Positions 1-35,874 of a stretch of DNA of 43,159 nucleotides are shown one piece after another. Under the pieces are notes generated by a model, which saw nothing but the letters and a program-made list of their open reading frames with translations, was not told where the DNA came from and did no database searches. The DNA lies in the NCBI GenBank assembly GCA_964607485.1, contig CAZSKP010000038.1:1-43159 (forward strand). Direction: 5' to 3'. Both the position numbers and the translations under genes were made by a program. Each line of letters begins with the position of its first letter. The stretch's first letter is position 1. The stretch comes from an uncultured bacterium (lineage in GTDB: Bacteria > Abyssobacteria > SURF-5).

Positions 1-2039
1 GGTCGCACCCGTTCCTCGTGGAAGCGGATGGACAGTCCCCCTTCGGTGCCGAGCAGTATCTCGTCGTCGCCGCTCGTGAGCTTCACCTGCGTGAGCCTGT
101 CGCCCTGTTCGAGGGTCATCGCGATGATGCCACCGCTGCGCGGATTGCTGAAGGCGGCGAGCTCGGTCTTCTTCACTCTTCCCTTCTCGGTGACCATCAT
201 CACGTACTTGCCGTCCTCGAACGACTTCACGTTCAGGAACGCCTCGACGTTCTCGCCCTCGGCGAGCTGAAGGATGTTGACGATGGCCCGGCCCTTCGAA
301 TACCTGCCGGCGCGGGGGATCTCGTGCACCTTCAGCCAGTGGACGCGGCCGCGGTCGGTGAAGAATAGGATGTAATCATGCGTGGACGCGATGAAGATGT
401 GTTCGACGAAATCTTCTTCCTTCGTCTCCATCCCTGTCACGCCGACTCCGCCCCGACGCTGTTTGCGATAGGTGCTCACGGGCAGCCGCTTCGTGTAGCC
501 CGCATGGGATATGGTGATGACCATATCTTCCTCGGCGATGAAGTCCTCCACCTTGAACTCGGCGGCCTCACCCAGTATCTCTGTCCGACGTGGGTCGGCA
601 TACTTCTTCTTCATCTCCTCCAACTCGGTGCGGATGACCTGTCTCAAAACGCGGGGGCTATCCAGGATCGACCTCAGGTTGGCCATCGTCTTCAGCAGGT
701 CCTCGTACTCTGCGTCTATCTTTTCGCGCTCCAGTCCGGTGAGCCGCTGGAGCCTCATTTCGAGTATCGCCTGCGCCTGCTTTTCTGTGAGCGCGAACTT
801 GCTCACGAGCGAGTCGCGCGCCTGTTCGGGGGTATGCGACTTTCTGATGGTTTCGATAACCTCGTCGATGTGGTCGAGGGCTATCTTGAGTCCTTCGAGG
901 ACGTGCGCGCGCTCCTCGGCCTTGTTCAACTGGAAGCGCGTGCGCCTCGTCACCACCTCGATCCTGTGGTCGAGGTACTCTGCCAGCATGCGCTTGAGCC
1001 CAAGCACGCGAGGTCGGTTCTCGACGAGAGCGAGCATGATGACGCCGAAGCTGTTCTGCATGGAGGTGTGCTTGTAGAGCTGGTTCAGGATGACCTCGGC
1101 GACTTCTCCCCGCTTCAGCTCGATGACGATGCGCATGCCGTCCTTGTCGCTTTCGTCACGGATGTCGGAGATGCCCGCCACTTTCTTCTGCTGAGCGAGC
1201 GCGGCGATGCTCTCTATGAGCTTGGTCTTGTTGACCTGGTAGGGAATCTCCGTCACGAGGATTTTTTCTTTGCCGCTCCCGCCGGAGGGCTTCTCTACCG
1301 CCACCTTCGCCCGCACGACAACCCTGCCGCGGCCGGTGCGGTACGCCTGCTCTATCCCCTTCCGGCCGAGTATGACGCCGCCGGTGGGGAAGTCGGGTCC
1401 TCTCACCACCTTCATCAGCTCGGCGAGTGAGACCTGAGGATTGTCGATGAGCATGCACAGGGCTTCCACGACCTCACCGAGATTGTGGGGCGGGATGTTT
1501 GTGGCCATTCCGACGGCTATGCCCGAGGAACCGTTGACGAGCAGGTTGGGAAAGGCCGCCGGCAGCACGACGGGCTCCTGGAGCGACTCGTCGAAGTTGG
1601 CCTGGAAATCGACCGTCTCCTCGTCGATGTCGGCGAGCATCTCCTCGGCCATAGGCGCAAGCCGCGCCTCGGTGTACCGCATCGCGGCGGCGTTGTCGCC
1701 GTCGATCGAGCCGAAGTTGCCCTGCCCGTCGATGAGCGGGTAGCGCATGTTGAAACTTTGCGCCATGCGCACGAGCGAATCGTACACGGGCGCGTCGCCG
1801 TGGGGATGATACTTACCCATCGTGTCGCCGACGATGCGCGCGCACTTGCGATACGCCCTGCGCGAGCCGAGCCCGAGCTCGTTCATCGCGTGCAGGATCC
1901 GCCTGTGGACCGGCTTAAGGCCGTCGCGCACGTCGGGCAGCGCGCGGGAGACTATCACGCTCATCGCGTAATCGATGAACGATTTTTTCATCTCGGTCTC
2001 AAGATTGACCGGAACTATTTTTTCGTTCTTCGTGTACAT
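1..2039 (-). CDS. gyrA: DNA gyrase subunit A (3' end runs off the window)
   Basis: Not in the ORF track. Hand translation from ATG at 2039 gives [49 protein letters not shown]...[19 protein letters not shown]. GyrA-box variant QRRGGVG near 442-462. Directly downstream of gyrB. Confidence 0.97.
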
Positions 2040-2150: not shown

Positions 2151-4619
<2,469 letters not shown>

Positions 4620-13489: not shown

Positions 13490-13567
13490 CCGCCACAGAG
13501 CGCACAGAGGTCACAGAGCGATTTTCCGTTTCTGTGCCTCTGTGTTCTCGGTGGTCTCTGTGGCAAA
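13490..13567. repeat. Inverted pair of CACAGAG 9-mer tandem repeats
   Basis: GCCACAGAG-CGCACAGAG-GTCACAGAG facing TTCTGTGC-CTCTGTGTT-CTCGGTGGT-CTCTGTGGC. Confidence 0.7.
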
Positions 13568-13618
13568 AGACTTCGGTAGGATTCCATTTCTGGATTCCCG
13601 CGTTCACGGCAATGACAA
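13555..13618. repeat. 64-bp composite repeat, copy 1 (ends in GGATTCCCGC..GGCAATGACA, a TGTC/CGTC-type REP)
   Basis: Aligns without gaps to 14966-15029 at 51/64 identities (hand count). Confidence 0.8.
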
Positions 13619-13705
13619 GGAAAGAGGATTTCGCGCCAGAATGGACCGCCGGGCCCTTGCCTTTGGAAAATCGGAAGAATGAAACGGAAGGTTCCGTAAT
13701 CCTTA

Positions 13706-14809
13706 CTATTCTTTTGCGCCTGCCTCTTTGAGTACCCGGACAGTTTCGGTATGTCCCTGCTCGAAGGCGAGCGCCAGGCTTGTGTGGCCTTCATTGTCTT
13801 TCGCATTCACGTCTGCGCCCTTGTCCAACAAGATTTTCACGACGTCGGTGTTGCCCTTGAATGCGGCAGCCATCAAGGGTGTCATTCCGTTGCAGGCTTT
13901 TGTGTTCACGTCAGCCCCTTTTCCCATGAGAGCAATTACAGTATCCATGCGATTCGCCGACGCCGCCAAATACAAAGCAGTGTATCCCTTATCGGTTCTT
14001 GCACGCAGGTCTGCGCCCTTATCCAGAAGCACGAATGCCGTGTCGGTATGTCCCATAACCGCGGCATCCATCAGCGGTGTCTTGCAGCGTGCGTCTGCCG
14101 CGTTCGGGTCTGCGCCTCTGTCTATCAAAGCTGTCACTGCATCGGTGCTGCCGTTGCCTGCCGCAAACATCAAGGCGGTCGTGCAACCATTGTCTCTTGC
14201 GTTGACGTCTGCGCCATTATCAAGGAGGGTGCGCACCACATCGGGATGATTATAGAACGCAGCACCCATCAGCGCTGTCATCCCAAACGCTTCGTGACGT
14301 TCATTTACATTTGCCCCGTACCTCAGCAAGGTTTCCACAACGTCGTCATGACCTCCGACAGACGCGATCATTAAGGCCGTTTGACCGCTTTTGTCTTTGA
14401 TGTTCGGGTCGGCGCCATTGGAAACGAGAAATTCAACTCTGCCGTTGTCGCCGCCAGATGTTGCCCGCAACAACGAGGGAATCAGATACATGTCGATTGT
14501 TCTGTGGGTAAGCGCATTGTAGAGAACAAACAGGATAAAGAAAGAGGCTACAACTGCTGCGGATTTGATGGCGGCTCGCCGCTTGAACAGTTTTCTGCCC
14601 GTCCACGCAAAGCCGATCAGGGTGAGAATAACGATAACAAGATGAATGCCGGCTTGGACCAAGTAGATGTTTTCGTGTCTTTGGTCGGAAATAATTTCGC
14701 GTGCAACCAACAGGAAAGCGATTGCGTTGCCTGTCATGCCCCACGTGAAAAAAAAGAATCCCAGTGCCCACAGAATCTTCTTTATGACCGTGCTCCTGAT
14801 TCGTGGCAA
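13706..14809 (-). CDS. Membrane-anchored ankyrin-repeat protein (about 3 N-terminal TM helices and 7-8 ankyrin repeats)
   Basis: Repeated G.T(A/P)LM.AA..G....V..LL..GADVN units; hydrophobic N-terminus; AT-richer than its neighbours. TTG start is uncertain. Confidence 0.9.
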   Translation of the reverse strand: MPRIRSTVIKKILWALGFFFFTWGMTGNAIAFLLVAREIISDQRHENIYLVQAGIHLVIVILTLIGFAWTGRKLFKRRAAIKSAAVVASFFILFVLYNALTHRTIDMYLIPSLLRATSGGDNGRVEFLVSNGADPNIKDKSGQTALMIASVGGHDDVVETLLRYGANVNERHEAFGMTALMGAAFYNHPDVVRTLLDNGADVNARDNGCTTALMFAAGNGSTDAVTALIDRGADPNAADARCKTPLMDAAVMGHTDTAFVLLDKGADLRARTDKGYTALYLAASANRMDTVIALMGKGADVNTKACNGMTPLMAAAFKGNTDVVKILLDKGADVNAKDNEGHTSLALAFEQGHTETVRVLKEAGAKE

Positions 14810-14929: not shown

Positions 14930-14958
14930 TGTAGGGGCGGTTCGCGAACCGTCCCTAC
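14930..14958. repeat. GTAG-type REP palindrome
   Basis: TGTAGGGGCGGTTCGCGAACCGTCCCTAC, a near-perfect hairpin starting with GTAG. Confidence 0.75.
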
Positions 14959-14965
14959 TCTGTGT

Positions 14966-15029
14966 TCTCTGTGGCAAATAGCGTTGGTAAGATTTTGATT
15001 CTGGATTCCCGCGTGCGCGGGAATGACAA
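14966..15029. repeat. 64-bp composite repeat, copy 2 (GGATTCCCGCGTGCGCGGGAATGACA)
   Basis: Direct repeat of 13555-13618; contains an ATTCCC-N8-GGGAAT palindrome. Confidence 0.8.
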
Positions 15030-15037
15030 AGAAGAGA

Positions 15038-18675: not shown

Positions 18676-20001
18676 ATGAGCGAAAATCAATTGCAGGGAG
18701 GATCATCTGCCAGCGCTAGACGGGAGGAAGAAGATCCAGACATCTCACCTATCGCCGAAGGGACACTTTCTTTCATTGGCCGCATAAATGGTTTGGCCAT
18801 TTCTTTTCCGCTAGTCACGTCTTTGTTGGAAGACGGTTGCAAGACGGAAGTTGGTAGGTTTCACGAATTCATCAAAGAGACAGCAGAAGAAGTAAAAGAA
18901 GAAAGCGAATCTTCAGAGAAGCCGAAAAGAAAGTATAAACTCGGCATTTCTAACATTCATGTATTCTGGAAGTGGATAAATGATCTGCTCAATGTAGACT
19001 CTGCTAGGATCATTATCCCGCAGAGCTTCGTTCTATCCCTTGTAAGTCAGTATGATTTCTTCTTGGGCCATCTCTTGCGTTGTTTATACTTGATGAGGCC
19101 TGAGTTGCTTAATGCCTCAGAGAAGAGTCTTACATATGGTCAACTCCTCGATTTCGAATCTATGGACGAGGCTAAGGAGTTCGTTCTCGAGAAAGAGATC
19201 GAATGGATCTTGAGAAAGAGCCACGTGGATCAATTCTTGGCCATGGAGAAGATCTTCAGTATTGAACTCAGGAAAGGCCTGGACGCATGGCCGATGTTTG
19301 TAGAAGTGACTGAACGAAGGAATCTTTTTGCTCATACAAATGGAGTGGTGTCAAGGCAATACTTGGAAGTTTGCCAGAAACATAATGTGGCAGTTGGGCC
19401 GGAGACGAGGGTTGGCAAGACACTTGGGGCGTCAGAAGAATACTTTGATGCAGCCTACGGTTGTATTTTTGAAATTGGCGTGAAACTTGCTAAAGTGCTC
19501 TGGAGAAAGACCTGTCCGAAGGAAATCGCATTGGCTGATGAACTGCTGACACAAATTATCTATGATTTACTGGTAAGAGAAAGGTATGATCTTGCGCGGA
19601 AACTTGCCGATTTCTCGCAACTTACGGTGAAGACCTTTTCGAGTGACGCGAGGAGGCGGGTCTTCATCGTAAACCGGGCACAAGCCTACAAGTGGAATGG
19701 GGATGAATCTCTGTGTCGGCAGATACTTGAACAAGAGGATTGGTCATCCTGCAGTGATAAGTTTAAGCTCGCAAGATTTGTGCTCTTGGAAGATTTTGAA
19801 CAGGCGGCTAAGTTAATGATCGCTATGGGGAAAAGCGGCGAAATTAATGAAGAGGCTTATCAAGCATGGCCTCTTTTCAAGGAATTTCGAAAGTCGGAGT
19901 CATTCTTGAGCGCATATGAGGATATTTTCGGTCGCCCCTTTGTGACAGTAGAAGAACCTCAGATTGGCGGCGTCAACATGTGTGAGGCGAGCGAGGAATA
20001 G
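18676..20001 (+). CDS. Hypothetical 441-aa all-alpha protein with a HEPN-like RNase motif (RRNLFAH)
   Basis: Long ORF with RBS and promoter; AT-richer than its flanks; R-x4-5-H motif at 19315-19335; helical, possibly TPR-like C-terminus. Confidence 0.6.
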   Translation: MSENQLQGGSSASARREEEDPDISPIAEGTLSFIGRINGLAISFPLVTSLLEDGCKTEVGRFHEFIKETAEEVKEESESSEKPKRKYKLGISNIHVFWKWINDLLNVDSARIIIPQSFVLSLVSQYDFFLGHLLRCLYLMRPELLNASEKSLTYGQLLDFESMDEAKEFVLEKEIEWILRKSHVDQFLAMEKIFSIELRKGLDAWPMFVEVTERRNLFAHTNGVVSRQYLEVCQKHNVAVGPETRVGKTLGASEEYFDAAYGCIFEIGVKLAKVLWRKTCPKEIALADELLTQIIYDLLVRERYDLARKLADFSQLTVKTFSSDARRRVFIVNRAQAYKWNGDESLCRQILEQEDWSSCSDKFKLARFVLLEDFEQAAKLMIAMGKSGEINEEAYQAWPLFKEFRKSESFLSAYEDIFGRPFVTVEEPQIGGVNMCEASEE

Positions 20002-25405: not shown

Positions 25406-26209
25406 ATGCAGAAGCGACTGTCCGAGCTGGTGTTTGTCGCCTTCGACGTGGAGACGACCGGCCTCGATTCGCAGGTGCACCGGATAGTCGAGGTCGGCGC
25501 GGTCAGGTTTGGCCGCGACGGTACCCGCGAAACGTACGAACAACTTGTCAACCCCGGCGGCCCGATGCCCTTAGATGCAAAGGCGATACACGGAATCACC
25601 GACGAGATGGTCGCCGGAAGCCCTCCTATAAGCTCAATCCTTCCCGATACTGTCCGCTTCTTCGGCGATTCCGTACTGGTCGCGCACAACGCCCAGTTCG
25701 ACATCGGCTTCTTCAACGCGGCCTTCGCCGAGGCGGCTCTCGAGCCTCTGCCGAACCCCATCCTCTGCACCCGCGAGCTCGCGCGCAGCCTGTTCCCCGG
25801 ACTGCCGGACTACAAGCTGACGACGCTCGCCAGGACTCTGCGGATTCCTCCGAGCGAACACCATCGCGCAGTGGCCGACGCGGGCACGAGCGCGGCGGTG
25901 TTCGCGCGGTGCGTCGAACGCACATCCGCGACGTGGGGCACGACCCTCGGCGAGCTGCTCCGCCGCCACGGCCCGATCTTCCGGTTCGGAAAAACGCCGG
26001 CCCAAACGCTGCAAGCGATACGGGACGCGCTGGAGACCCGCAAGTCCTTGCGCATCGAGTATAAGGGCGCAAACGGCAGATTCACCCTTCGCAACATCAC
26101 GCCGCTGACAATCGAGGAACGCGGCCGCACCGTGAAGATCGTCGCCTACTGTCATCTCCGCCGCGAGAACCGCACCTTCCGGCTCGACCGCATCACGAGG
26201 ATACTGTGA
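25406..26209 (+). CDS. DEDDh (DnaQ-like) 3'-5' exonuclease fused to a C-terminal WYL domain
   Basis: FDVETTG, VAHNAQFD and HRAVADA; C-terminal IEY...T.R.ITP...AYCHLR.E.RTFRLDRI. Confidence 0.85.
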   Translation: MQKRLSELVFVAFDVETTGLDSQVHRIVEVGAVRFGRDGTRETYEQLVNPGGPMPLDAKAIHGITDEMVAGSPPISSILPDTVRFFGDSVLVAHNAQFDIGFFNAAFAEAALEPLPNPILCTRELARSLFPGLPDYKLTTLARTLRIPPSEHHRAVADAGTSAAVFARCVERTSATWGTTLGELLRRHGPIFRFGKTPAQTLQAIRDALETRKSLRIEYKGANGRFTLRNITPLTIEERGRTVKIVAYCHLRRENRTFRLDRITRIL

Positions 26210-26226
26210 AACTCCGCGATTGCGAC

Positions 26227-26287
26227 GGGGACTGTCCCAAGAATTACGGCCCGAGCTTGTCGAGGGCGTAGATTCGGGACTGTCCCC
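26227..26287. repeat. Two GGGACTGTCCC palindromes around a CCCGAGCTTGTCGAGGG hairpin
   Basis: GGGGACTGTCCC 26227-26238, CCCGAGCTTGTCGAGGG 26250-26266 and GGGACTGTCCCC 26276-26287. Confidence 0.65.
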
Positions 26288-26349
26288 GGAGCGAAACAAT
26301 AGCGGTTCAAGTATAAGGCAGAGTCCCCGCCGCGCGCCGAGAAATCGCG

Positions 26350-28463: not shown

Positions 28464-29489
28464 ATGACGCGCGAACGCATAGTTGATGGAAGGCCGCTGT
28501 CGGAGGTTGACGAAACCTTCAGTTGGAGCCTCCGCCCGAAGACGCTTTCGGAATACATAGGCCAGCGCAACGTGGTGGAGAAGCTTTCCATCTCCATTCA
28601 GGCCTCGAAGGCGCGGGGCGAGCCACACGAGCATGTCCTCTTCTACGGGCCGCCCGGCCTGGGCAAGACGACGCTCGCGACCGTCATCGCGAACGAGATG
28701 GGCACCAACATGGTCGCGACGTCGGGGCCGGCGCTGGAGCGGACGGGCGACCTCATGGGTCTGCTCACCAACCTCGAACACGGAGACGTTCTGTTCATCG
28801 ACGAGATTCACCGGCTGCCGCGCGTGCTGGAGGAGTTCGTGTACCCGGCGATGGAGGATTACCAGGTCGATTTTCTGGTGGACAAGGGCGCGTTTGCGAA
28901 AACCATTAAGGTGCAGCTCAAGCATTTCACGCTCGTCGGCGCGACGACGCGCGCCGGCTTCCTGACGGCCCCGTTCAGGGAACGGTTCGGTATCTACCAC
29001 TATCTCGATTTCTATCCGCCCGACGAGATCGCCCAGATTCTGGAACGTTCGGCCCGGATACTGGGCATCGAGATCGACCAGCCGGCTATCGAGCAGGTGG
29101 CCGCGAGGGCGCGAGGGACGCCGCGCGTTGCCAACCGCCTGCTCAGGCGCGTGCGCGACTTCGCCGAGGTCAGGCACGACGGCCGCGTCGAGGAACGGAT
29201 AGCCGTCGAGGCGCTCGAACTCGAAGGAGTGGACGCCCGCGGGCTCGACGAGCTGGACCGGAAGTTTCTGCACACGATAATCGAAAATTACGGCGGCGGG
29301 CCCGTCGGCATCACGGCGCTCTCGGCCTCGCTGAACGAAGAAACGGACACGCTCGAAGACATGGTCGAGCCGTACCTCCTCAAGATAGGATTCCTGAATC
29401 GCACACGTCAAGGCAGAATCGCGACCGAACGCTCATTCGAACACCTCGGCCTCAAGCGCGGCGGCGCATCTCAGAAAGAGCTGTTCTAA
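28464..29489 (+). CDS. ruvB: Holliday junction DNA helicase RuvB
   Basis: LRPK...YIGQ, GPPGLGKTT, FIDEIHR, GATTRAG, RGTPR.ANRLL and EPYL. Confidence 0.98.
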   Translation: MTRERIVDGRPLSEVDETFSWSLRPKTLSEYIGQRNVVEKLSISIQASKARGEPHEHVLFYGPPGLGKTTLATVIANEMGTNMVATSGPALERTGDLMGLLTNLEHGDVLFIDEIHRLPRVLEEFVYPAMEDYQVDFLVDKGAFAKTIKVQLKHFTLVGATTRAGFLTAPFRERFGIYHYLDFYPPDEIAQILERSARILGIEIDQPAIEQVAARARGTPRVANRLLRRVRDFAEVRHDGRVEERIAVEALELEGVDARGLDELDRKFLHTIIENYGGGPVGITALSASLNEETDTLEDMVEPYLLKIGFLNRTRQGRIATERSFEHLGLKRGGASQKELF

Positions 29490-29558
29490 TAACGTTGGGG
29501 TCAGGTCTTCAGGGCGTGTTGCTCAAATAATTTCTCACACGACGTTGTTCCTATGTCT

Positions 29559-29658
29559 TGTCATTGCGAGGAGCGAAGCGACGAAGCAATCCCGATGATA
29601 TCCGGGAGACGCCTCTGGGATTGCTTCGGTCGGGTCGTTGACCCTCCCTCGCAATGAC
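29559..29658. repeat. REPIN-like inverted doublet (TGTCATTGCGAG...GCAATC family)
   Basis: TGTCATTGCGAGGAGCGAAGCGACGAAGCAATCCC facing GGGATTGCTTCG...CCTCGCAATGAC. Confidence 0.8.
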
Positions 29659-29671
29659 CGAAGGTTTTTCC

Positions 29672-30229
29672 ATGAAACTACTGCTTCATATATGCTGCGG
29701 ACCGTGCGCCACGTATCCCGCAAAGATTCTGCGCGAGGCGGGCCACGACCTCCACGGCCTCTTCTACAACCCCAACATCCATCCGCTGGCCGAGCACAGC
29801 CTCCGGCTGGAGTCGGCAAGAAAACTGCTTGAAGGAATGGACATCCCGGCGACGATTGACGACGAATACGACGTCGAGGAATATTTCAGGCGCGTCGTCT
29901 ATCGAGAGAGCAACCGCTGCGCAGCCTGCTACCGGCTCCGGCTCGAGCGCGCGGCGCGCGAGGCGGCATCTCAAAAGTTTGACGCCTTCACCACGACGCT
30001 GCTCGTGAGCCCCTATCAGAAGCACGAGCTGATTCGTGAAATCGGCGAGAGCGCGGGCATGGATTACGGCGTCGAGTTCTACTACGAGGATTTCCGACCC
30101 GGCTGGACGGAGACGCGCCGGATGTCGAACGAGATGGGGCTGTACCGCCAGAAGTATTGCGGCTGCATATACAGTGAGAAGGAACGTTTCCTGACCTCGG
30201 GCGACAAGCGCGGTCGCGGCGACCGCTGA
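29672..30229 (+). CDS. queH: Epoxyqueuosine reductase QueH (DUF208)
   Basis: LLHICCGPC, FYNPNIHP, RC..CY.LRL, TTTLLVSPYQ and YRQKYCGC. Start reassigned to ATG 29672. Confidence 0.93.
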   Translation: MKLLLHICCGPCATYPAKILREAGHDLHGLFYNPNIHPLAEHSLRLESARKLLEGMDIPATIDDEYDVEEYFRRVVYRESNRCAACYRLRLERAAREAASQKFDAFTTTLLVSPYQKHELIREIGESAGMDYGVEFYYEDFRPGWTETRRMSNEMGLYRQKYCGCIYSEKERFLTSGDKRGRGDR

Positions 30230-30237
30230 CCCATCCG

Positions 30238-31272
30238 ATGCTCAAGCTCTCAGACTTCGATTACGAACTGCCTCAGGAACTCATCGCCCAGCATCCCGCC
30301 GGGCGCAGGGGCGAGTCGCGCCTGATGGTCCTGGACCGCGCGACCGGCGCGATAGAAATCGGGATGTTTCACGACATCGCCGGATACGTCGGCCGCGGCG
30401 ACGCGCTCGTCCTGAACGACACGAAGGTGTTTCCCGCCCGCCTGCGCGCGACGAAGCCTTCCACCGGCGCGCGCATCGAGATTCTTCTGTTGTACGAGGT
30501 GAGGAAAGGCGTGTGGGAAGCGTTGGTGCGTCCCGGCAGACGCGCGGGCGTCGGCACGGTGCTGTCGATTGAAGGCGCGCGGCAGGCCGACACGGCGGAG
30601 GTCATCGCCGACCACGGGAGCAGGAAGACGCTGAAATTCCATGTCGGGGACGTCAGGCGGCTGTGCTGGCGCGTGGGCGAGATACCTCTGCCTCCCTACA
30701 TCCAGCGCGAGGTAGAGTCCGACGATGCGGACAGGTATCAGACGGTGTTCGCAAGGAGAGAGGGCGCCGCCGCCGCGCCGACCGCAGGCCTGCATTTCAC
30801 GTCGCAGTTGCTCAAGAGCATATGCGACAAAGGGGTATCGCTCGAATTCGTCACGCTGCACATAGGCCTCGGCACGTTCCAGCCGCTTGAGCACGAAGAG
30901 GTCGAGAAAAACCGGCTGCATCCCGAGCGCTACCGCGTGACCGCCAAGACGGCGCGCCGGCTGAACGACGTGCGGCGGCGCGAGGGCAGGGTGTTCGCCG
31001 TGGGCACAACGACGCTCCGGCTGCTCGAGACGGTGGCCACCGAGCGGGGCGAATTCGGCGCGGGCGAAGGAGTGTCGGACATCTTCATCTATCCCGGCCA
31101 CACATTCCGCTCCGCCGACGCGCTCGTCACCAACTTTCACCTGCCGCGCAGCTCGCTGCTCTTGCTCGTGTGCGCGTTCGCCGGCCGCGACCTCATCATG
31201 CGCGCCTACGAAACCGCCGTCAAGGAAAACTTTCGCTTCTTCAGCTACGGCGACGCGATGTTGATTTTGTGA
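30238..31272 (+). CDS. queA: SAM:tRNA ribosyltransferase-isomerase
   Basis: FDYELP.ELIAQ, NDTKV, PLPPYI, YQTVFA, AAPTAGLHF, VGTT, TNFHLP and FFSYGDAM. Confidence 0.98.
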   Translation: MLKLSDFDYELPQELIAQHPAGRRGESRLMVLDRATGAIEIGMFHDIAGYVGRGDALVLNDTKVFPARLRATKPSTGARIEILLLYEVRKGVWEALVRPGRRAGVGTVLSIEGARQADTAEVIADHGSRKTLKFHVGDVRRLCWRVGEIPLPPYIQREVESDDADRYQTVFARREGAAAAPTAGLHFTSQLLKSICDKGVSLEFVTLHIGLGTFQPLEHEEVEKNRLHPERYRVTAKTARRLNDVRRREGRVFAVGTTTLRLLETVATERGEFGAGEGVSDIFIYPGHTFRSADALVTNFHLPRSSLLLLVCAFAGRDLIMRAYETAVKENFRFFSYGDAMLIL

Positions 31273-31281
31273 GGATTCAAG

Positions 31282-31300
31282 TAGGGACAGCCCCCATCTT
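31282..31300 (+). repeat. RAYT-associated palindrome, left copy (TAGGGACAGCCCCCATCTT)
   Basis: 17/19 identical, in direct orientation, to 33071-33089; lies 10 bp after the queA stop. Confidence 0.7.
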
Positions 31301-31324
31301 CTTAGCTGGACGGAGAACCAAGAC

Positions 31325-31825
31325 ATGTATAATTATTACAAATCCTTGCCAGGATACATTACCATGTTTGCCAACGCGATCCTGCTTTTGGGACTTGTAT
31401 TCTTGTTCTTTAGCTGGCGGATATCGGTCGTTCTATTCGCGAGTGCGATTTTTCTTTGGTGTCTTTCGGCTGTACTGCATGATCTCAGAAGTGGTGGGCC
31501 AAGCCTTTACTCGGCATTGGCCCAAAAGTATAAGAATCCTGAAGCAATAGAAGAGTTGAAAGCAAGAGGTCTTTCAGACGAGGGGATACGGGCAATGCAT
31601 GGCGAGGCGGTCAGCATGGCGAAGAGAGCTTTTCGACTCTGGAAGGCAGTTCAGCTGGCGACGATTATCTTGACCATTGCCTTCCTAATTGCCGCACTTT
31701 TTTCGAGTTGGTGGTATTTGGTCCCGGTGCTGCCCACTGTTGGATTGAACATGCTTGCGTATACAAAAAAGATGTTATCAATCCGACGAGACCCTGCAAC
31801 GAACGACCTTGATGAAGTCGTATAG
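31325..31825 (+). CDS. Hypothetical 4-TM membrane protein
   Basis: Two hydrophobic hairpins separated by a soluble loop; GGAG RBS; AT-richer than host genes. Confidence 0.65.
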   Translation: MYNYYKSLPGYITMFANAILLLGLVFLFFSWRISVVLFASAIFLWCLSAVLHDLRSGGPSLYSALAQKYKNPEAIEELKARGLSDEGIRAMHGEAVSMAKRAFRLWKAVQLATIILTIAFLIAALFSSWWYLVPVLPTVGLNMLAYTKKMLSIRRDPATNDLDEVV

Positions 31826-31836
31826 TAGATGATAGT

Positions 31837-31853
31837 AAACGGGGTCCCTATTT
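31837..31853 (-). repeat. Inverted, internally deleted copy of the RAYT palindrome
   Basis: Minus strand AAATAGGGAC----CCCGTTT versus AAATAGGGACAGACCCCATTT at 33068. Confidence 0.55.
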
Positions 31854-31882
31854 AGTTCGCTCACATTCTAGAGGGAATAACG

Positions 31883-32455
31883 ATGAACCTTAACGAGGCA
31901 TCGACATATTTCCGCGAAAGAGTTAACGAGCTCCGCCGGGCTTGCGCTGATGGAACGCCGTGGGTTTTCCTGTGCGCTTCGGCCTTCATTGAGTACCTAT
32001 CGAAACTGGTAAATGGCGAGGACAAGGGACGCGATGGATACAAGAAATTCGTTAAAGATTATCTGAGTCAAGCGAATCCTCTTTACAGAGATTTTGTCTT
32101 CAAGAACGGACAATGCGACTTGGACGTTCAAATGTATTACGTTCTTCGATGTGGCATTGTTCATAGCTTTTCTCTCATACCTGATGACCGTGCCAGAAAA
32201 GCACATGGCCGGGACAGATCAATTGTTCTCTGTCATGCGAGAGAGCGAGATGAACATGGTTGGAAGCATCTTATGCCCTACCCGCCACCAGAGATCAAAA
32301 GTACAGTCAACGACGCTGTGCTATTTGTTGCAGAAGACTTTGTAGACGATATTGGGAAAGTGACGGAACTTATACTTACAGAAGCGAATCTACAGGGCAA
32401 TATCGAAAAGTGGCTGGACCGTCACCCGCCGATTACTGGTGGGTTTAAGGGCTGA
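31883..32455 (+). CDS. Hypothetical protein with a HEPN-like R-x4-H motif (LRCGIVH)
   Basis: GAGGG RBS; helical; IEYLS...Y..FV..Y...Y..LRCGIVHS, with the motif at 32147-32164; AT-richer than host genes. Confidence 0.6.
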   Translation: MNLNEASTYFRERVNELRRACADGTPWVFLCASAFIEYLSKLVNGEDKGRDGYKKFVKDYLSQANPLYRDFVFKNGQCDLDVQMYYVLRCGIVHSFSLIPDDRARKAHGRDRSIVLCHARERDEHGWKHLMPYPPPEIKSTVNDAVLFVAEDFVDDIGKVTELILTEANLQGNIEKWLDRHPPITGGFKG

Positions 32456-32477
32456 AGACATCTCACTATTCGTGAGA

Positions 32478-32495
32478 GGACATCTGTCGCTATTT
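32478..32495 (-). repeat. Degenerate inverted copy of the RAYT palindrome
   Basis: Minus strand AAATAGCGACAGATGTCC, 12/13 identical to AAATAGGGACAGA, 22 bp after the preceding stop. Confidence 0.4.
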
Positions 32496-32606
32496 AAGTC
32501 ACTTAAAAAGAATCTTCTTTTGCTTAGGCCTGTCAGAAAACTCGTTTCGGCAAGAAACCGAAAAAATTTGCCCCAACGCATATTGTTCTCAGTCCTCGCA
32601 TTTTTT

Positions 32607-32702
32607 CTATTTCTTCGTCAAGGCGCGATAGACGAGCACTAACCCGGCTACCGTAATAACAAGCGTGCAGAAAGCTATTAATATCATCAGATGCTCTGCC
32701 AT
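32607..32702 (-). CDS. 31-aa single-TM peptide, type I toxin-like (not in the ORF track)
   Basis: Hand translation gives MAEHLMILIAFCTLVITVAGLVLVYRALTKK*. RBS AGGGGG lies 7 nt upstream; one TM helix with a basic KK tail. Confidence 0.6.
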   Translation of the reverse strand: MAEHLMILIAFCTLVITVAGLVLVYRALTKK

Positions 32703-33070
32703 GGTATACCCCCTGTGATTTCTTGTCGGCCACTTTAACCTAACAACAACTCGCTCCTTTGAGCAGAAGAGAATCTTCGAATTGCGACACGAATATTATT
32801 GGGGATACTCAAGCTGACAAGCCTTTAATGATAAGAAAATCAGATGTTCCATAAATTTAACCATATGGTTCCAAAAACCGTCAAATGCAAGGTCTTTCTG
32901 TTCCACAAGATATTGTACCCCCAAGATGAAGAGGCGAAAATTCATTTGAGACTCCATATCTTGTGCGAAGATGCCCCGCAGAAGCTCTTAAGAAGCAAGT
33001 AGAATTCATAACAGAAGAAAATTCGTCGCTGGCTATGTCTCTCGGTAGATTCTCGGGAAAGGCCGAAAAA

Positions 33071-33089
33071 TAGGGACAGACCCCATTTT
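33071..33089 (+). repeat. RAYT-associated palindrome, right copy (TAGGGACAGACCCCATTTT)
   Basis: Immediately upstream of the RAYT -35; direct repeat of 31282-31300. Confidence 0.7.
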
Positions 33090-33093
33090 TTGC

Positions 33094-33123
33094 TTGACCG
33101 CACCGCCGGTGCTGGATTATCAT
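33094..33123 (+). promoter_or_regulatory. Putative RAYT promoter (possibly leaderless mRNA)
   Basis: TTGACC-18-TATCAT ending 7 nt before the ATG; no SD. Confidence 0.45.
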
Positions 33124-33130
33124 TCAGCCC

Positions 33131-33793
33131 ATGCCGAGAATGGCCAGAGTGGTAGCCACAGATGTTCCGCACCACATCACTCAGCGGGGCGATCGTAGTA
33201 CAGAGATTTTTCTGGACGACGAAGATCGCCAAACCTATCTCGGCTTCCTGAAGCGATATCGGGAAAAGCACGGTCTCGAGATTCTCGCCTATTGCCTGAT
33301 GTCGAATCACATCCACCTTGTGGCCGTGCCTAAGGAAGCCAACTCTCTCGCTCGAACACTGGCGGTCGCACACATGCGCTACACACAGCACTTCAATTGG
33401 AAATATTCTCAGTCGGGGCATCTATGGCACGCACGCTTTTTCTCCTGTGTGCTCGATGATCGGCACACCTTGGCGGCGACGCGTTATGTGGAGCGCAATC
33501 CGGTGAGAGCGGGGTTGGTGGGCCGGCCGTGGGACTACAAGTGGTCGAGCGCGAGGGCGCACATCGGGGAAAGAGCGGACACGGTTCTGTCAACGAGGTG
33601 GCCGCCGAGCAAGCTGCTTTCCCAATGGAGGGACTTTCTCGTGGAGCCGGAAGAAGCGGGCAAACTAGAAGAGATCAGGTTCTCCACACGCAGAGGTCGC
33701 CCGCTCGGTTCGCTGGAATTTGTCGAAAAGTTAGAGCGGCTGCTTGGCAAGCGCTTGGCCGCCCGAAATAGAGGTCGTCCCCGAAAGCAGTAA
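33131..33793 (+). mobile_element. REP-associated tyrosine transposase (RAYT / TnpA-REP, Y1 HUH family)
   Basis: MPR.AR...PHHITQRG, AYCLMSNHIHL (HUH), GHLW..RF.S, RYVERNP (catalytic Tyr), WSS and C-terminal RGRPRK; no tnpB. Confidence 0.9.
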
Positions 33794-34255
33794 GACGAAA
33801 TCGGTGATTTCGGCGCGCTCTTTCCAACCAAGCTTTTGGTAGATTCGGTACGCGGCTCGATGCTTGCCCGTCACAAGGTGAAGCCGCGAACAACCCCGCT
33901 CGAGGGCCTCTCGTTTTATCTCCTCGATCAACTGCTTCCCGATTCCCTTGCTCCGTGCCGACTTGCGCACAAACAATTCTGAAATAAATCCCTCCGGCCC
34001 GCCGAGCACCAGGCAGGGAAGCCAGTGCGCCGAGATGTACCCCGCAACTGTGCCTGATGAAGTCTGCGCGACCAGCACCGTATGGCTGTTATCAGTGCGG
34101 CACATCTCCATATGTCGGGACACCTGCTTCTCTGTCTCGACGGCTGACTTATCTTTCATATGAGAAAGCCACTCGACTTCCCGGAGAATCTCGGCAATTG
34201 CAGCGACGTCTGAGGGAGTCGCAGGACGAATTGTGGTCTCGACACCGCTAGACAT
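33731..34255 (-). CDS. GNAT-family N-acetyltransferase
   Basis: IRPAT..D, ISELFV...RSKGIG..L and Y.KLGW; GGGAGG RBS; the 3' end overlaps the RAYT by 63 bp. Confidence 0.88.
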   Translation of the reverse strand: MSSGVETTIRPATPSDVAAIAEILREVEWLSHMKDKSAVETEKQVSRHMEMCRTDNSHTVLVAQTSSGTVAGYISAHWLPCLVLGGPEGFISELFVRKSARSKGIGKQLIEEIKREALERGCSRLHLVTGKHRAAYRIYQKLGWKERAEITDFVLLLSGTTSISGGQALAKQPL

Positions 34256-34303
34256 TCACTCCTCCCATTCTTGCTATTGTCCGGCAAGCTGTCCGGATGA
34301 GCT

Positions 34304-34331
34304 AATGTCGTCACATTGTACGGACGACATT
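34304..34331. promoter_or_regulatory. Operator-like inverted repeat upstream of the GNAT gene
   Basis: AATGTCGTC-10 bp-GACGACATT; the spacer holds a minus-strand TACAAT. Confidence 0.4.
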
Positions 34332-34447
34332 CATTCCACATGGATGATATCCCGGAATTACTGCCATGGCAAGCAAAAAGAAGTTCCATCTCAAATCGCC
34401 TGTCTGTAACGATGTCACGGCCTGTTGCCCGAATGGCGGTGGCCGAT

Positions 34448-34555
34448 TGTCATTCTGAGCGAAGCGAAGAATCTCTGTTTTGAGATGTAAATTTCCAGAA
34501 TAATGAGGGATTCTTCGTCGCCTGGGTCTGCGACCCTTCGCTCCTCAGAATGACA
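34448..34555. repeat. REPIN-like inverted doublet (TGTCATTCTGAG...GAATCT family)
   Basis: TGTCATTCTGAGCGAAGCGAAGAATCT facing GATTCTTCG...CTCAGAATGACA. Confidence 0.8.
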
Positions 34556-34647
34556 GTTTTGATAGACTCGTGGAACAAGAACCGGTTTGAGCAACACGCC
34601 GGCAAGACCTAACATCGACCTGCGGTCCCGGTTGCACGGTGCGCTGA

Positions 34648-35874
<1,227 letters not shown>

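Follow-up and report, generated by a model that had tools for sequence, protein, structure and literature searches.

A Y1 (HUH) transposase gene and probable copies of its end repeat in an insert between queA and tgt of an uncultured bacterium

Genes for REP-associated tyrosine transposases (RAYTs; REP, repetitive extragenic palindrome) and for TIRYTs, which go with terminal inverted repeats (TIRs), are very common, and their effects on genomes are still poorly known. Passages of Nunvar et al. 2010 (PMC2817692) describe rayt genes lying between inverted REPs, with identical repeats scattered among the neighbouring genes; in some species the repeats accumulate near rayt, from which these authors concluded that new copies arise preferentially nearby. 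Di Nocera et al. 2013 (PMC3733652) treat REPtrons and TIRtrons and place TIRYT genes in Acidobacteria, Planctomycetes and other groups. In the excerpts of that paper used here, the TIRs stand at a constant distance from the gene, share the sequence GGGGWSAS and form small families whose members occur singly, as dimers or in groups. The ends of IS200/IS605 insertion sequences (ISs), according to part of the former paper (PMC2817692), are same-strand subterminal hairpins and not inverted repeats. Here we describe a Y1 transposase gene of this general kind that, together with copies of a short palindrome and a few accessory genes, separates queA from tgt in an uncultured bacterium of the Abyssobacteria (SURF-5; assembly GCA_964607485.1, contig CAZSKP010000038.1, positions 1 to 43,159, the whole of which we call the window). 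An original prediction had proposed that the enzyme captures protein-coding cassettes in an integron-like way. Our search of the open-access literature, at the level of titles and abstracts, found no report of passenger capture by RAYTs.

We think it rather probable that the insert is a small, compositionally layered accessory island around a Y1 (HUH) transposase of the TIRtron/REPtron type, and that the additional motif copies are solo ends. The window is a core, origin-proximal stretch of the chromosome, with the gene order gyrB-dciA-dnaN-dnaA, uvrC, citrate synthase, yebC-ruvC-ruvA-ruvB-queH-queA, insert, tgt-yajC-secDF-nadC-birA-coaX. As predicted, the queA-tgt junction is split: 3.47 kb lie between the two genes, compared with 55 nt in Escherichia coli K-12, where both belong to queA-tgt-yajC-secD-secF. 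The insert shows two layers, in GC content and in GC content at third codon positions (GC3). Its left part (31273-33067), in which an AT-richer block had rightly been noticed, has 45% GC, with a GC3 of 0.51 in open reading frame (ORF) 1 and of 0.47 in ORF2. The part with the transposase and GNAT genes (33068-34429) has 54-57% GC and GC3 values of 0.66 and 0.65, respectively, and the host flanks have 58-61% GC, with GC3 values of 0.76-0.85 in their genes. A search of positions 29000-35200 against Rfam at E <= 1 returned no match, nor did the DNA of the AT-rich block match any plasmid or phage in distant mode. The features of the locus are collected in Table 1.

The transposase gene is intact and of RAYT type, in agreement with the original prediction. 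Besides the Y1_Tnp domain, the protein has the HUH histidines and the tyrosine: H60, H62 and Y119 do not vary across an alignment of 47 family members, the window protein included, and correspond to the HUH and tyrosine regions of PDB entry 4ER8. This entry, E. coli TnpArep, is also the best PDB match of the family profile (E 2.9e-5), ahead of the transposases of IS200, IS608 and ISDra2. As a single sequence the protein had no match among PDB sequences, and the PHROGs search likewise gave none. Its scores stay under the cut-offs of two dedicated models, with 67.6 bits for NF047646 (REP_Tyr_transpos; curated cut-off 80) and 17.1 bits for NF033573 (transpos_IS200; cut-off 55). The homologues number 4288 at E <= 0.001, the closest being 80% and 70% identical. 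A promoter-like site directly follows the proximal copy of the palindrome, so the claim that the right-hand repeat abuts the promoter of the gene was correct. The -10 hexamer of this site ends 7 nt upstream of the ATG, a spacing that recurs in many relatives, and the protein start MPR... is conserved in the window and in many of them (33118-33131 and relatives). Because the hexamer lies this close to the ATG, the sequence suggests that the transposase mRNA is leaderless.

No inverted partner of the motif lies on the 3' side of the gene: the best candidate scores 7, and shuffled sequences reached up to 10. When the locus is compared with the closest relative (L001), the similar DNA extends precisely from the motif to the stop codon, and L001 carries a 3' repeat at the place where the window has none. 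The last 21 codons of the convergent GNAT gene are antisense to the transposase 3' end (overlap 63 nt), which leaves no room for such a repeat. Since this end is missing, the mobility of the window transposase itself appears doubtful.

Relatives were gathered by a transposase search of species-representative genomes, which did not include that of the window; the search gave 80 loci from many phyla, at best 65% identical. The left end of most of them, placed about 40-65 nt ahead of the ATG, is made up of an A-run, GGGAC, four to six variable bases, CC and a T-run; a TTGAC -35 box often comes directly after it. At the stop codon or shortly past it, 44 of the 68 relatives for which both flanks were available carry a significant inverted partner (the other 12 loci lacked a flank), and GGGAC, counted by eye, is found in 36 of these 44 paired repeats. 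Sequence variants of the end repeat co-vary with the transposase lineage. Pair covariation in the hairpin, over 37 relatives, is weak, and shifted registers pair equally well. Among the pairs listed, close copies of the gene in different contexts have in common only a unit that runs from end to end (end, promoter, gene and inverted end; about 750-920 nt). L009 and L010 are 95.3% identical over positions -63..719 relative to the ATG, L009 and L014 94.6%, L005 and L006 90.0%, and L054 and L060 98.9% over the shared unit; sharing of the unit alone was also observed in L003/L004, L023/L024, L031/L035 and L075/L076. At least 8 metagenome-assembled genomes have two or more copies among the 80 loci. 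Because the end-to-end unit is what the copies share, the family behaves as a compact IS-like unit. The claim that the palindrome is the transposase's own draws on the conserved left end and its inverted partner, and the comparison of these sequences makes it well supported that the palindrome is the end of this transposase family.

Some loci show further particularities of the end repeat. Stutter-like tandem copies of its outer 7-10 nt, pointing away from the gene, occur upstream in L010, L015, L025, L026 and L031 and also downstream in L010, L047 and L054; by a strict count, 5 of 52 loci have at least two extra copies within 80 nt. In L028 (9860-9949) and L041 (9845-9949) a second left end upstream is followed by the promoter and the first few transposase codons, that is, by a truncated 5' duplicate joined at a motif copy.

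How does this family compare with the systems described? Its RAYT-like Y1 transposase of about 220 aa, in non-gammaproteobacterial phyla, recalls the TIRYTs of TIRtrons. In the window the motif stands about 42 nt ahead of the ATG, and its core, AGGGACAG, agrees with GGGGWSAS at 7 of 8 positions; the core of many relatives, GGGGACAG, fits it fully, the relatives having both repeats. As in TIRtrons, the inverted repeats are short, keep a constant distance from the gene and belong to small families of single copies, dimers or groups. The window differs in that its gene has a 5' repeat only and in that coding genes separate this repeat from a second, directly oriented copy 1.8 kb upstream. This comparison is one by published consensus and description, taken from part of the source (PMC3733652), and does not establish that the motif belongs to any of the TIR families listed there. 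REPtrons (a RAYT together with REP or REPIN, as outlined in portions of PMC2817692 and of Bertels et al. 2017, PMC5581495) share with the family the HUH histidines and tyrosine, a profile nearest to TnpArep and, in the relatives, a gene between inverted palindromes whose copies are scattered among the neighbours and concentrated near the gene. In contrast to REPtrons, the window gene is flanked by the 5' copy only, its NF047646 score is under the cut-off, the motif has a G+C core of 3 bp between A/T flanks whereas REPs are G+C-rich and 20-40 nt long, and several relatives have multiple gene copies per genome, like an IS. As to abundance, the 43 kb hold no half-site match (at most one mismatch) outside 31279-33089, a figure for the window and not for the genome. 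Finally, IS200/IS605 elements belong to the same Pfam family and would share the single-strand 'peel and paste' chemistry, and, as with them, no target-site duplication was seen at the boundaries of the present units; they differ from the relatives, whose ends are inverted repeats, and in the NF033573 score. Given the match to published TIRtron and REPtron features, we regard the architecture as one of a known kind.

In the window, the motif is a 22-nt imperfect palindrome in two direct copies that agree at 19 of 22 positions. Both match the motif 16-mer (one N) perfectly, and no other site in the window does, so that the AT-rich block is bounded by direct repeats as had been claimed. At up to three mismatches, the 16-mer has 4 hits against 0.54 expected, and none of 100 shuffles reached 4. 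As a single-stranded DNA (ssDNA) hairpin the proximal copy gives -5.1 kcal/mol (z -3.9; 0 of 200 shuffles as good), whereas the distal copy, at -1.8 kcal/mol and z about 0, folds no better than shuffles. We also built a covariance model of the motif from 37 relatives. It gives 33.7 bits to the proximal copy, which is however itself in the training set. Right behind the proximal site and its reverse strand come the distal copy, with 11.2 bits (E 1.5), and the copy after ORF1, with 10.4 bits (E 2.8); the copy after ORF2 was not detected by the model at E <= 10. The direct repeat (19-22 nt) was also considered as a target-site duplication and ruled out, as it has 3 mismatches and Y1 elements make no such duplication.

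The two inverted, degenerate copies just past the stop codons of ORF1 and ORF2 hold up only in part. The 10-nt left half of the motif, at one mismatch or fewer, has 4 matches in the whole window, all inside 31279-33077, and dinucleotide shuffles of the inner 1767 nt gave two or more such matches in 20 of 5000 cases, i.e. a local P of 0.004 for a half-site that was picked post hoc, after inspection of the data. Aligned over their full length with gaps, on the other hand, the two copies score 9 and 7, which is the level of unrelated background sites, and neither of them folded in the hairpin test. They are relics at best. The orientation of the four copies is + - - +, and the predicted order of elements (copy, ORF1, inverted copy, ORF2, inverted copy, peptide gene, copy, transposase) is correct. 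A terminator scan called none of the four.

Elsewhere in the window, downstream of an RNase T-WYL gene (25406-26209), positions 26226-26288 contain two inverted arms with the core GGGAC-T-GTCCC, 48 nt apart, that pair into a single long hairpin of -26.7 kcal/mol (z -6.05; none of 200 shuffles as good). The two arms are a REPIN-like doublet that has the GGGAC core in common with the transposase motif.

Table 1. Features of the queA-tgt interval and its borders, in window coordinates.
Feature	Position	Strand	Evidence or description
queA, left host flank	30238..31272	+	PF02547, E 6e-125; GC3 0.85
Distal motif copy, left edge of AT-rich DNA, 7 nt past queA stop	31279..31300	+	19/22 identity to proximal copy; perfect 16-mer match
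ORF1, 166-aa integral membrane protein, family unnamed	31325..31825	+	Hydrophobic stretches at residues 7-54 and 104-137
Degenerate inverted half-copy (relic at best), 12 nt past ORF1 stop	31837..31853	-	Left half of the motif (10 nt) matched exactly
ORF2, 190 aa, uncharacterised family with invariant R-x4-H	31883..32455	+	R89, G91, H94, S97, R112 and H129 invariant in 59 sequences
Degenerate inverted half-copy (relic at best), 23 nt past ORF2 stop	32478..32495	-	Left 13 nt match with 1 mismatch
Small hydrophobic-peptide gene, 31-aa ORF 32702-32607	32545..32820	-	Promoter-like site 32820-32793; terminator-like hairpin 32563-32545
Proximal motif copy, conserved left end of transposase unit	33068..33089	+	Position and core as in relatives
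Promoter-like site of transposase gene, after proximal motif copy	33094..33123	+	TTGACC, 18 nt, TATCAT; 10/12 consensus matches
Y1/HUH tyrosine transposase, RAYT/TIRYT kind, intact, without recognisable 3' end repeat	33131..33793	+	PF01797, E 5e-11
GNAT acetyltransferase, convergent with transposase gene	33731..34255	-	PF00583, E 6e-17; GC3 0.65, below host genes
Repeat element unrelated to transposase motif, right edge of insert	34430..34625		Inverted copy of 29490-29670; 74% identity over about 160 nt
tgt, right host flank	34747..35874	+	PF01702, E 1.5e-165

Extra copies of the end repeat are also present around the gene in relatives. We searched 51 non-redundant relatives with the 19-mer of each locus, allowing up to three mismatches, and found copies more than 150 nt from the unit in 19 of them; their density is 1.53 per 10 kb at 150-1000 nt and has fallen to 0.06 per 10 kb at 7.5-10 kb. 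The genes found between copies are diverse. L013 has housekeeping genes there (carB, tatC, pyrD-type and others), L007 has IS3, a hydrolase gene and genes for sugar modification, and L059 has RHS and GH3 genes. Small toxin-antitoxin genes lie between the copies in three further cases: Phd/DUF3368, FitA/PIN and HipA in L017/L016 (11 copies in 6 kb), DUF4258 in L005 and a MazE-like/PemK pair in L028 (PemK E 5e-27). The pattern of motif copies among small accessory genes does recur, then, in unrelated relatives (L016/L017, L005 and L028). In the 80 loci, queA, queH, tgt, ORF1, ORF2, the GNAT gene and the small ORFs had no tblastn hit, and, as queA, tgt, ORF1, ORF2 and the GNAT gene are absent from them, there is no shared cargo. 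In two pairs, upstream DNA is shared along with the unit, over 2 kb in L025/L026 and over 1.2 kb in L029/L041. The stretch common to L025 and L026 stops exactly at the right end repeat, and no motif was found at the far boundary of the shared upstream DNA in either pair.

A tentative history of the locus can be proposed on this basis. The enzyme would recognise an ssDNA hairpin and would cut and rejoin at its foot, like E. coli TnpA-REP. The distal copy and the two decayed half-copies would be solo ends, seeded near the gene by transposase activity or imported with the AT-rich block from a related array, and lying in intergenic gaps just past stop codons, where such repeats could be tolerated. 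The transposase gene would have lost its 3' end and now run straight into the convergent GNAT gene; with this end lost, the unit is probably stranded. The cargo, namely the membrane protein, the R-x4-H protein and the hydrophobic-peptide gene, could be ordinary horizontally acquired accessory DNA beside the transposase. The motif copies would be likely breakpoints for deletions and insertions, and not boundaries of individually mobile cassettes. The locus mainly illustrates the known seeding of REPs and TIRs, here in a core, origin-proximal operon. More generally, one large and mostly uncultured branch of these transposases combines a compact two-ended unit, extra ends within a few kb and rearrangement junctions at ends.

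Several observations weigh against solo ends seeded around a resident gene. The other 41 kb of the window have no motif copy, except for the GGGAC-containing palindrome pair at 26226-26288, and the window gene is without a 3' partner. Decay has gone further in the half-copies past ORF1 and ORF2 than in the distal copy, though the DNA around them is the most AT-rich and presumably the youngest, so that simple local seeding fails to account for them; import with the block from another array is one possible origin, chance another. In L017, the FitA/PIN operon (2934-3724, about 790 nt) lies between a + copy, about 66 nt ahead of its start, and a - copy at its stop, which is the geometry of the transposase unit itself, and L016 has the matching part. 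L016 and L017 differ by a 1.8-kb segment that includes a toxin-antitoxin pair and whose right junction lies 5 nt before a motif copy. Lastly, L028 and L034 are orthologous loci whose synteny extends over about 20 kb, and they have unrelated DNA between a - copy and the + end of the gene. One would then wonder whether motif-bounded accessory segments are non-autonomous units that the Y1 enzyme excises as single-stranded circles and inserts beside a resident motif copy, the array growing at the left end of the transposase unit in a manner formally like attC x attI. The FitA/PIN bracket of L017/L016, the junction of the indel and the DNA upstream of the left end that differs between L028, with its MazE-like/PemK pair, and L034 all speak for it, as does the 2 kb that L025 and L026 share upstream of a unit ending exactly at the right repeat. 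So does the window, where the AT-rich block lies between two direct copies, directly 5' of the left end, and is compositionally younger than the transposase/GNAT part, and where ORF1 is bracketed by a + copy and a degenerate - copy. However, no passenger was found in two different contexts (80 loci; among the pairs listed), the left junction of the L016/L017 indel lies within a gene, away from the motif, and no motif marks the far edge of the upstream DNA that was co-duplicated in L025/L026 and in L029/L041. Among about 52 non-redundant loci, brackets containing ORFs were confined to 2 places, the window and L016/L017; the orientations are mixed, two of the window copies are unfolded, and in L013 the copies surround housekeeping genes. 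We consider capture of this kind unlikely. Its fuller version, in which passenger operons of toxin-antitoxin or defence-like genes are bracketed by ends and moved in trans by the HUH enzyme to a place beside its left end, giving an integron-like growing array, seems to us quite improbable; if the ends did set toxin-antitoxin or defence genes beside them in motion, genes would be captured by a route that is new.

The likeness to integrons is formal only, in that short sites of folded DNA stand between small accessory genes beside the gene of an enzyme that works on ssDNA hairpins. The island differs from an integron in having no IntI among its ORFs (Pfam, NCBIfam) and no attI or attC, its enzyme being a HUH nuclease. 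Nor does it have cassettes that lack promoters or share one orientation; the peptide gene, read from the other strand, has a promoter-like site to itself. The integron-like claim of the original prediction was not borne out, given the absence of these features, the mixed orientations, the two degenerate and unfolded copies out of four and the housekeeping genes between copies in L013; moreover, accumulation of repeats near a new rayt is already published, as passages of PMC2817692 document. Our analysis also sets the brackets beside three other precedents. In mobile insertion cassettes, in MITEs (miniature transposable elements with inverted repeats) carrying passengers and in one-ended capture by IS91/ISCR, transposon ends surround a non-transposase gene or one end is fixed. 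The brackets around ORF1 (one end degenerate) and around the FitA/PIN operon of L017 resemble the first two, and the upstream DNA co-duplicated with the unit in L025/L026, which ends at one fixed end, resembles the third; the present loci differ from all three in that none of these units was seen in a second copy among the 80 loci. Without any capture, the left end could have been duplicated in tandem and the AT-rich block later inserted between the copies, or acquired from a relative through homologous recombination, independently of the transposase, the inverted half-copies being due to chance. Two or three left-end copies within about 25-160 nt are indeed seen in L004, L023, L025, L026, L028, L031, L041 and L047, the full-length scores of the half-copies are those of background, and the block encodes no recombinase or transposase (Pfam, NCBIfam). 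Yet all 4 half-site matches fall within the 1.8-kb block (local shuffle P 0.004), both half-copies lie 12-23 nt past stop codons, and a mechanism for the insertion of the block is not evident, so this explanation is in our opinion quite improbable. It is very improbable, finally, that the palindrome mainly serves the host or the element as a functional signal ahead of the transposase promoter and behind genes (a weak bidirectional terminator, an insulator or a site for protein binding), and that selection maintains it without spread by transposition. At the left end of IS200 there is a terminator hairpin. In the present family the hairpin lies between an A-run and a T-run, directly before the -35 box, and copies lie just past stop codons. 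Roles of REPs in transcription termination and mRNA stabilisation have been hypothesised, as mentioned in part of PMC3733652. Against this stand the terminator scan, the unfolded distal and inverted copies, the weak pair covariation, equalled by shifted registers, and the fact that the variants co-vary with the transposase lineage and have an inverted 3' partner, as transposon ends do.

The cargo of the insert consists of poorly characterised genes. The ORF1 protein reaches no Pfam or NCBIfam family at threshold, has two homologues (87% and 53% identical) and gave a weak PADLOC match to PycTM (E 6e-4) on which we do not rely. A decayed transposase was considered for ORF1 and ruled out, since it encodes a membrane protein with real homologues. 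ORF2 belongs to a family of stand-alone proteins of about 190 aa, with 86 homologues and 304 representative clusters at E <= 1e-3. It had no match in Pfam, NCBIfam, PHROG or PDB sequences (the latter by profile), its homologue in the protein atlas falls in unnamed clusters only, and the weak PADLOC match to Csm2 (E 0.003) is not relied on either. Relatives of ORF2 with 27-28% identity are found on two Acetobacter plasmids beside an integrase gene and repA, which is uninformative. From the R89-x4-H94 motif, a HEPN fold is a possible candidate for this protein. The closest homologues of ORF1 (87%) and ORF2 (80%) both have a longest contig of 4976 nt, and this identical figure suggests that the two genes might form a conserved pair. 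The 31-aa peptide matches Hol_Tox (PF16935) with E 3.4e-4 and 20.8 bits, below the cut-off of 23.3; PHROGs searches with this peptide and with the ORF1 protein gave no match. At the right edge of the insert, the repeat at 34430-34625 and its counterpart at 29490-29670 are each internally palindromic and flank queH-queA, the insert, the transposase gene and the GNAT gene.

A few observations were made away from the insert. A 441-aa ORF at 18676-20001, without a Pfam family, has a GC3 of 0.49 among neighbours of 0.7-0.87 and may be a second piece of foreign DNA. A 76-nt direct repeat (13547-13622 and 14958-15033, 79% identical) surrounds an ankyrin-repeat gene (13706-14809) that has a 99-nt internal periodicity. 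Among the relatives, L002 (5889-9975) contains three identical tandem units of 1379 nt, each with a DDE_Tnp_1/DUF4372 transposase, directly upstream of the Y1 gene and at the end of a 4.5-Mb contig.

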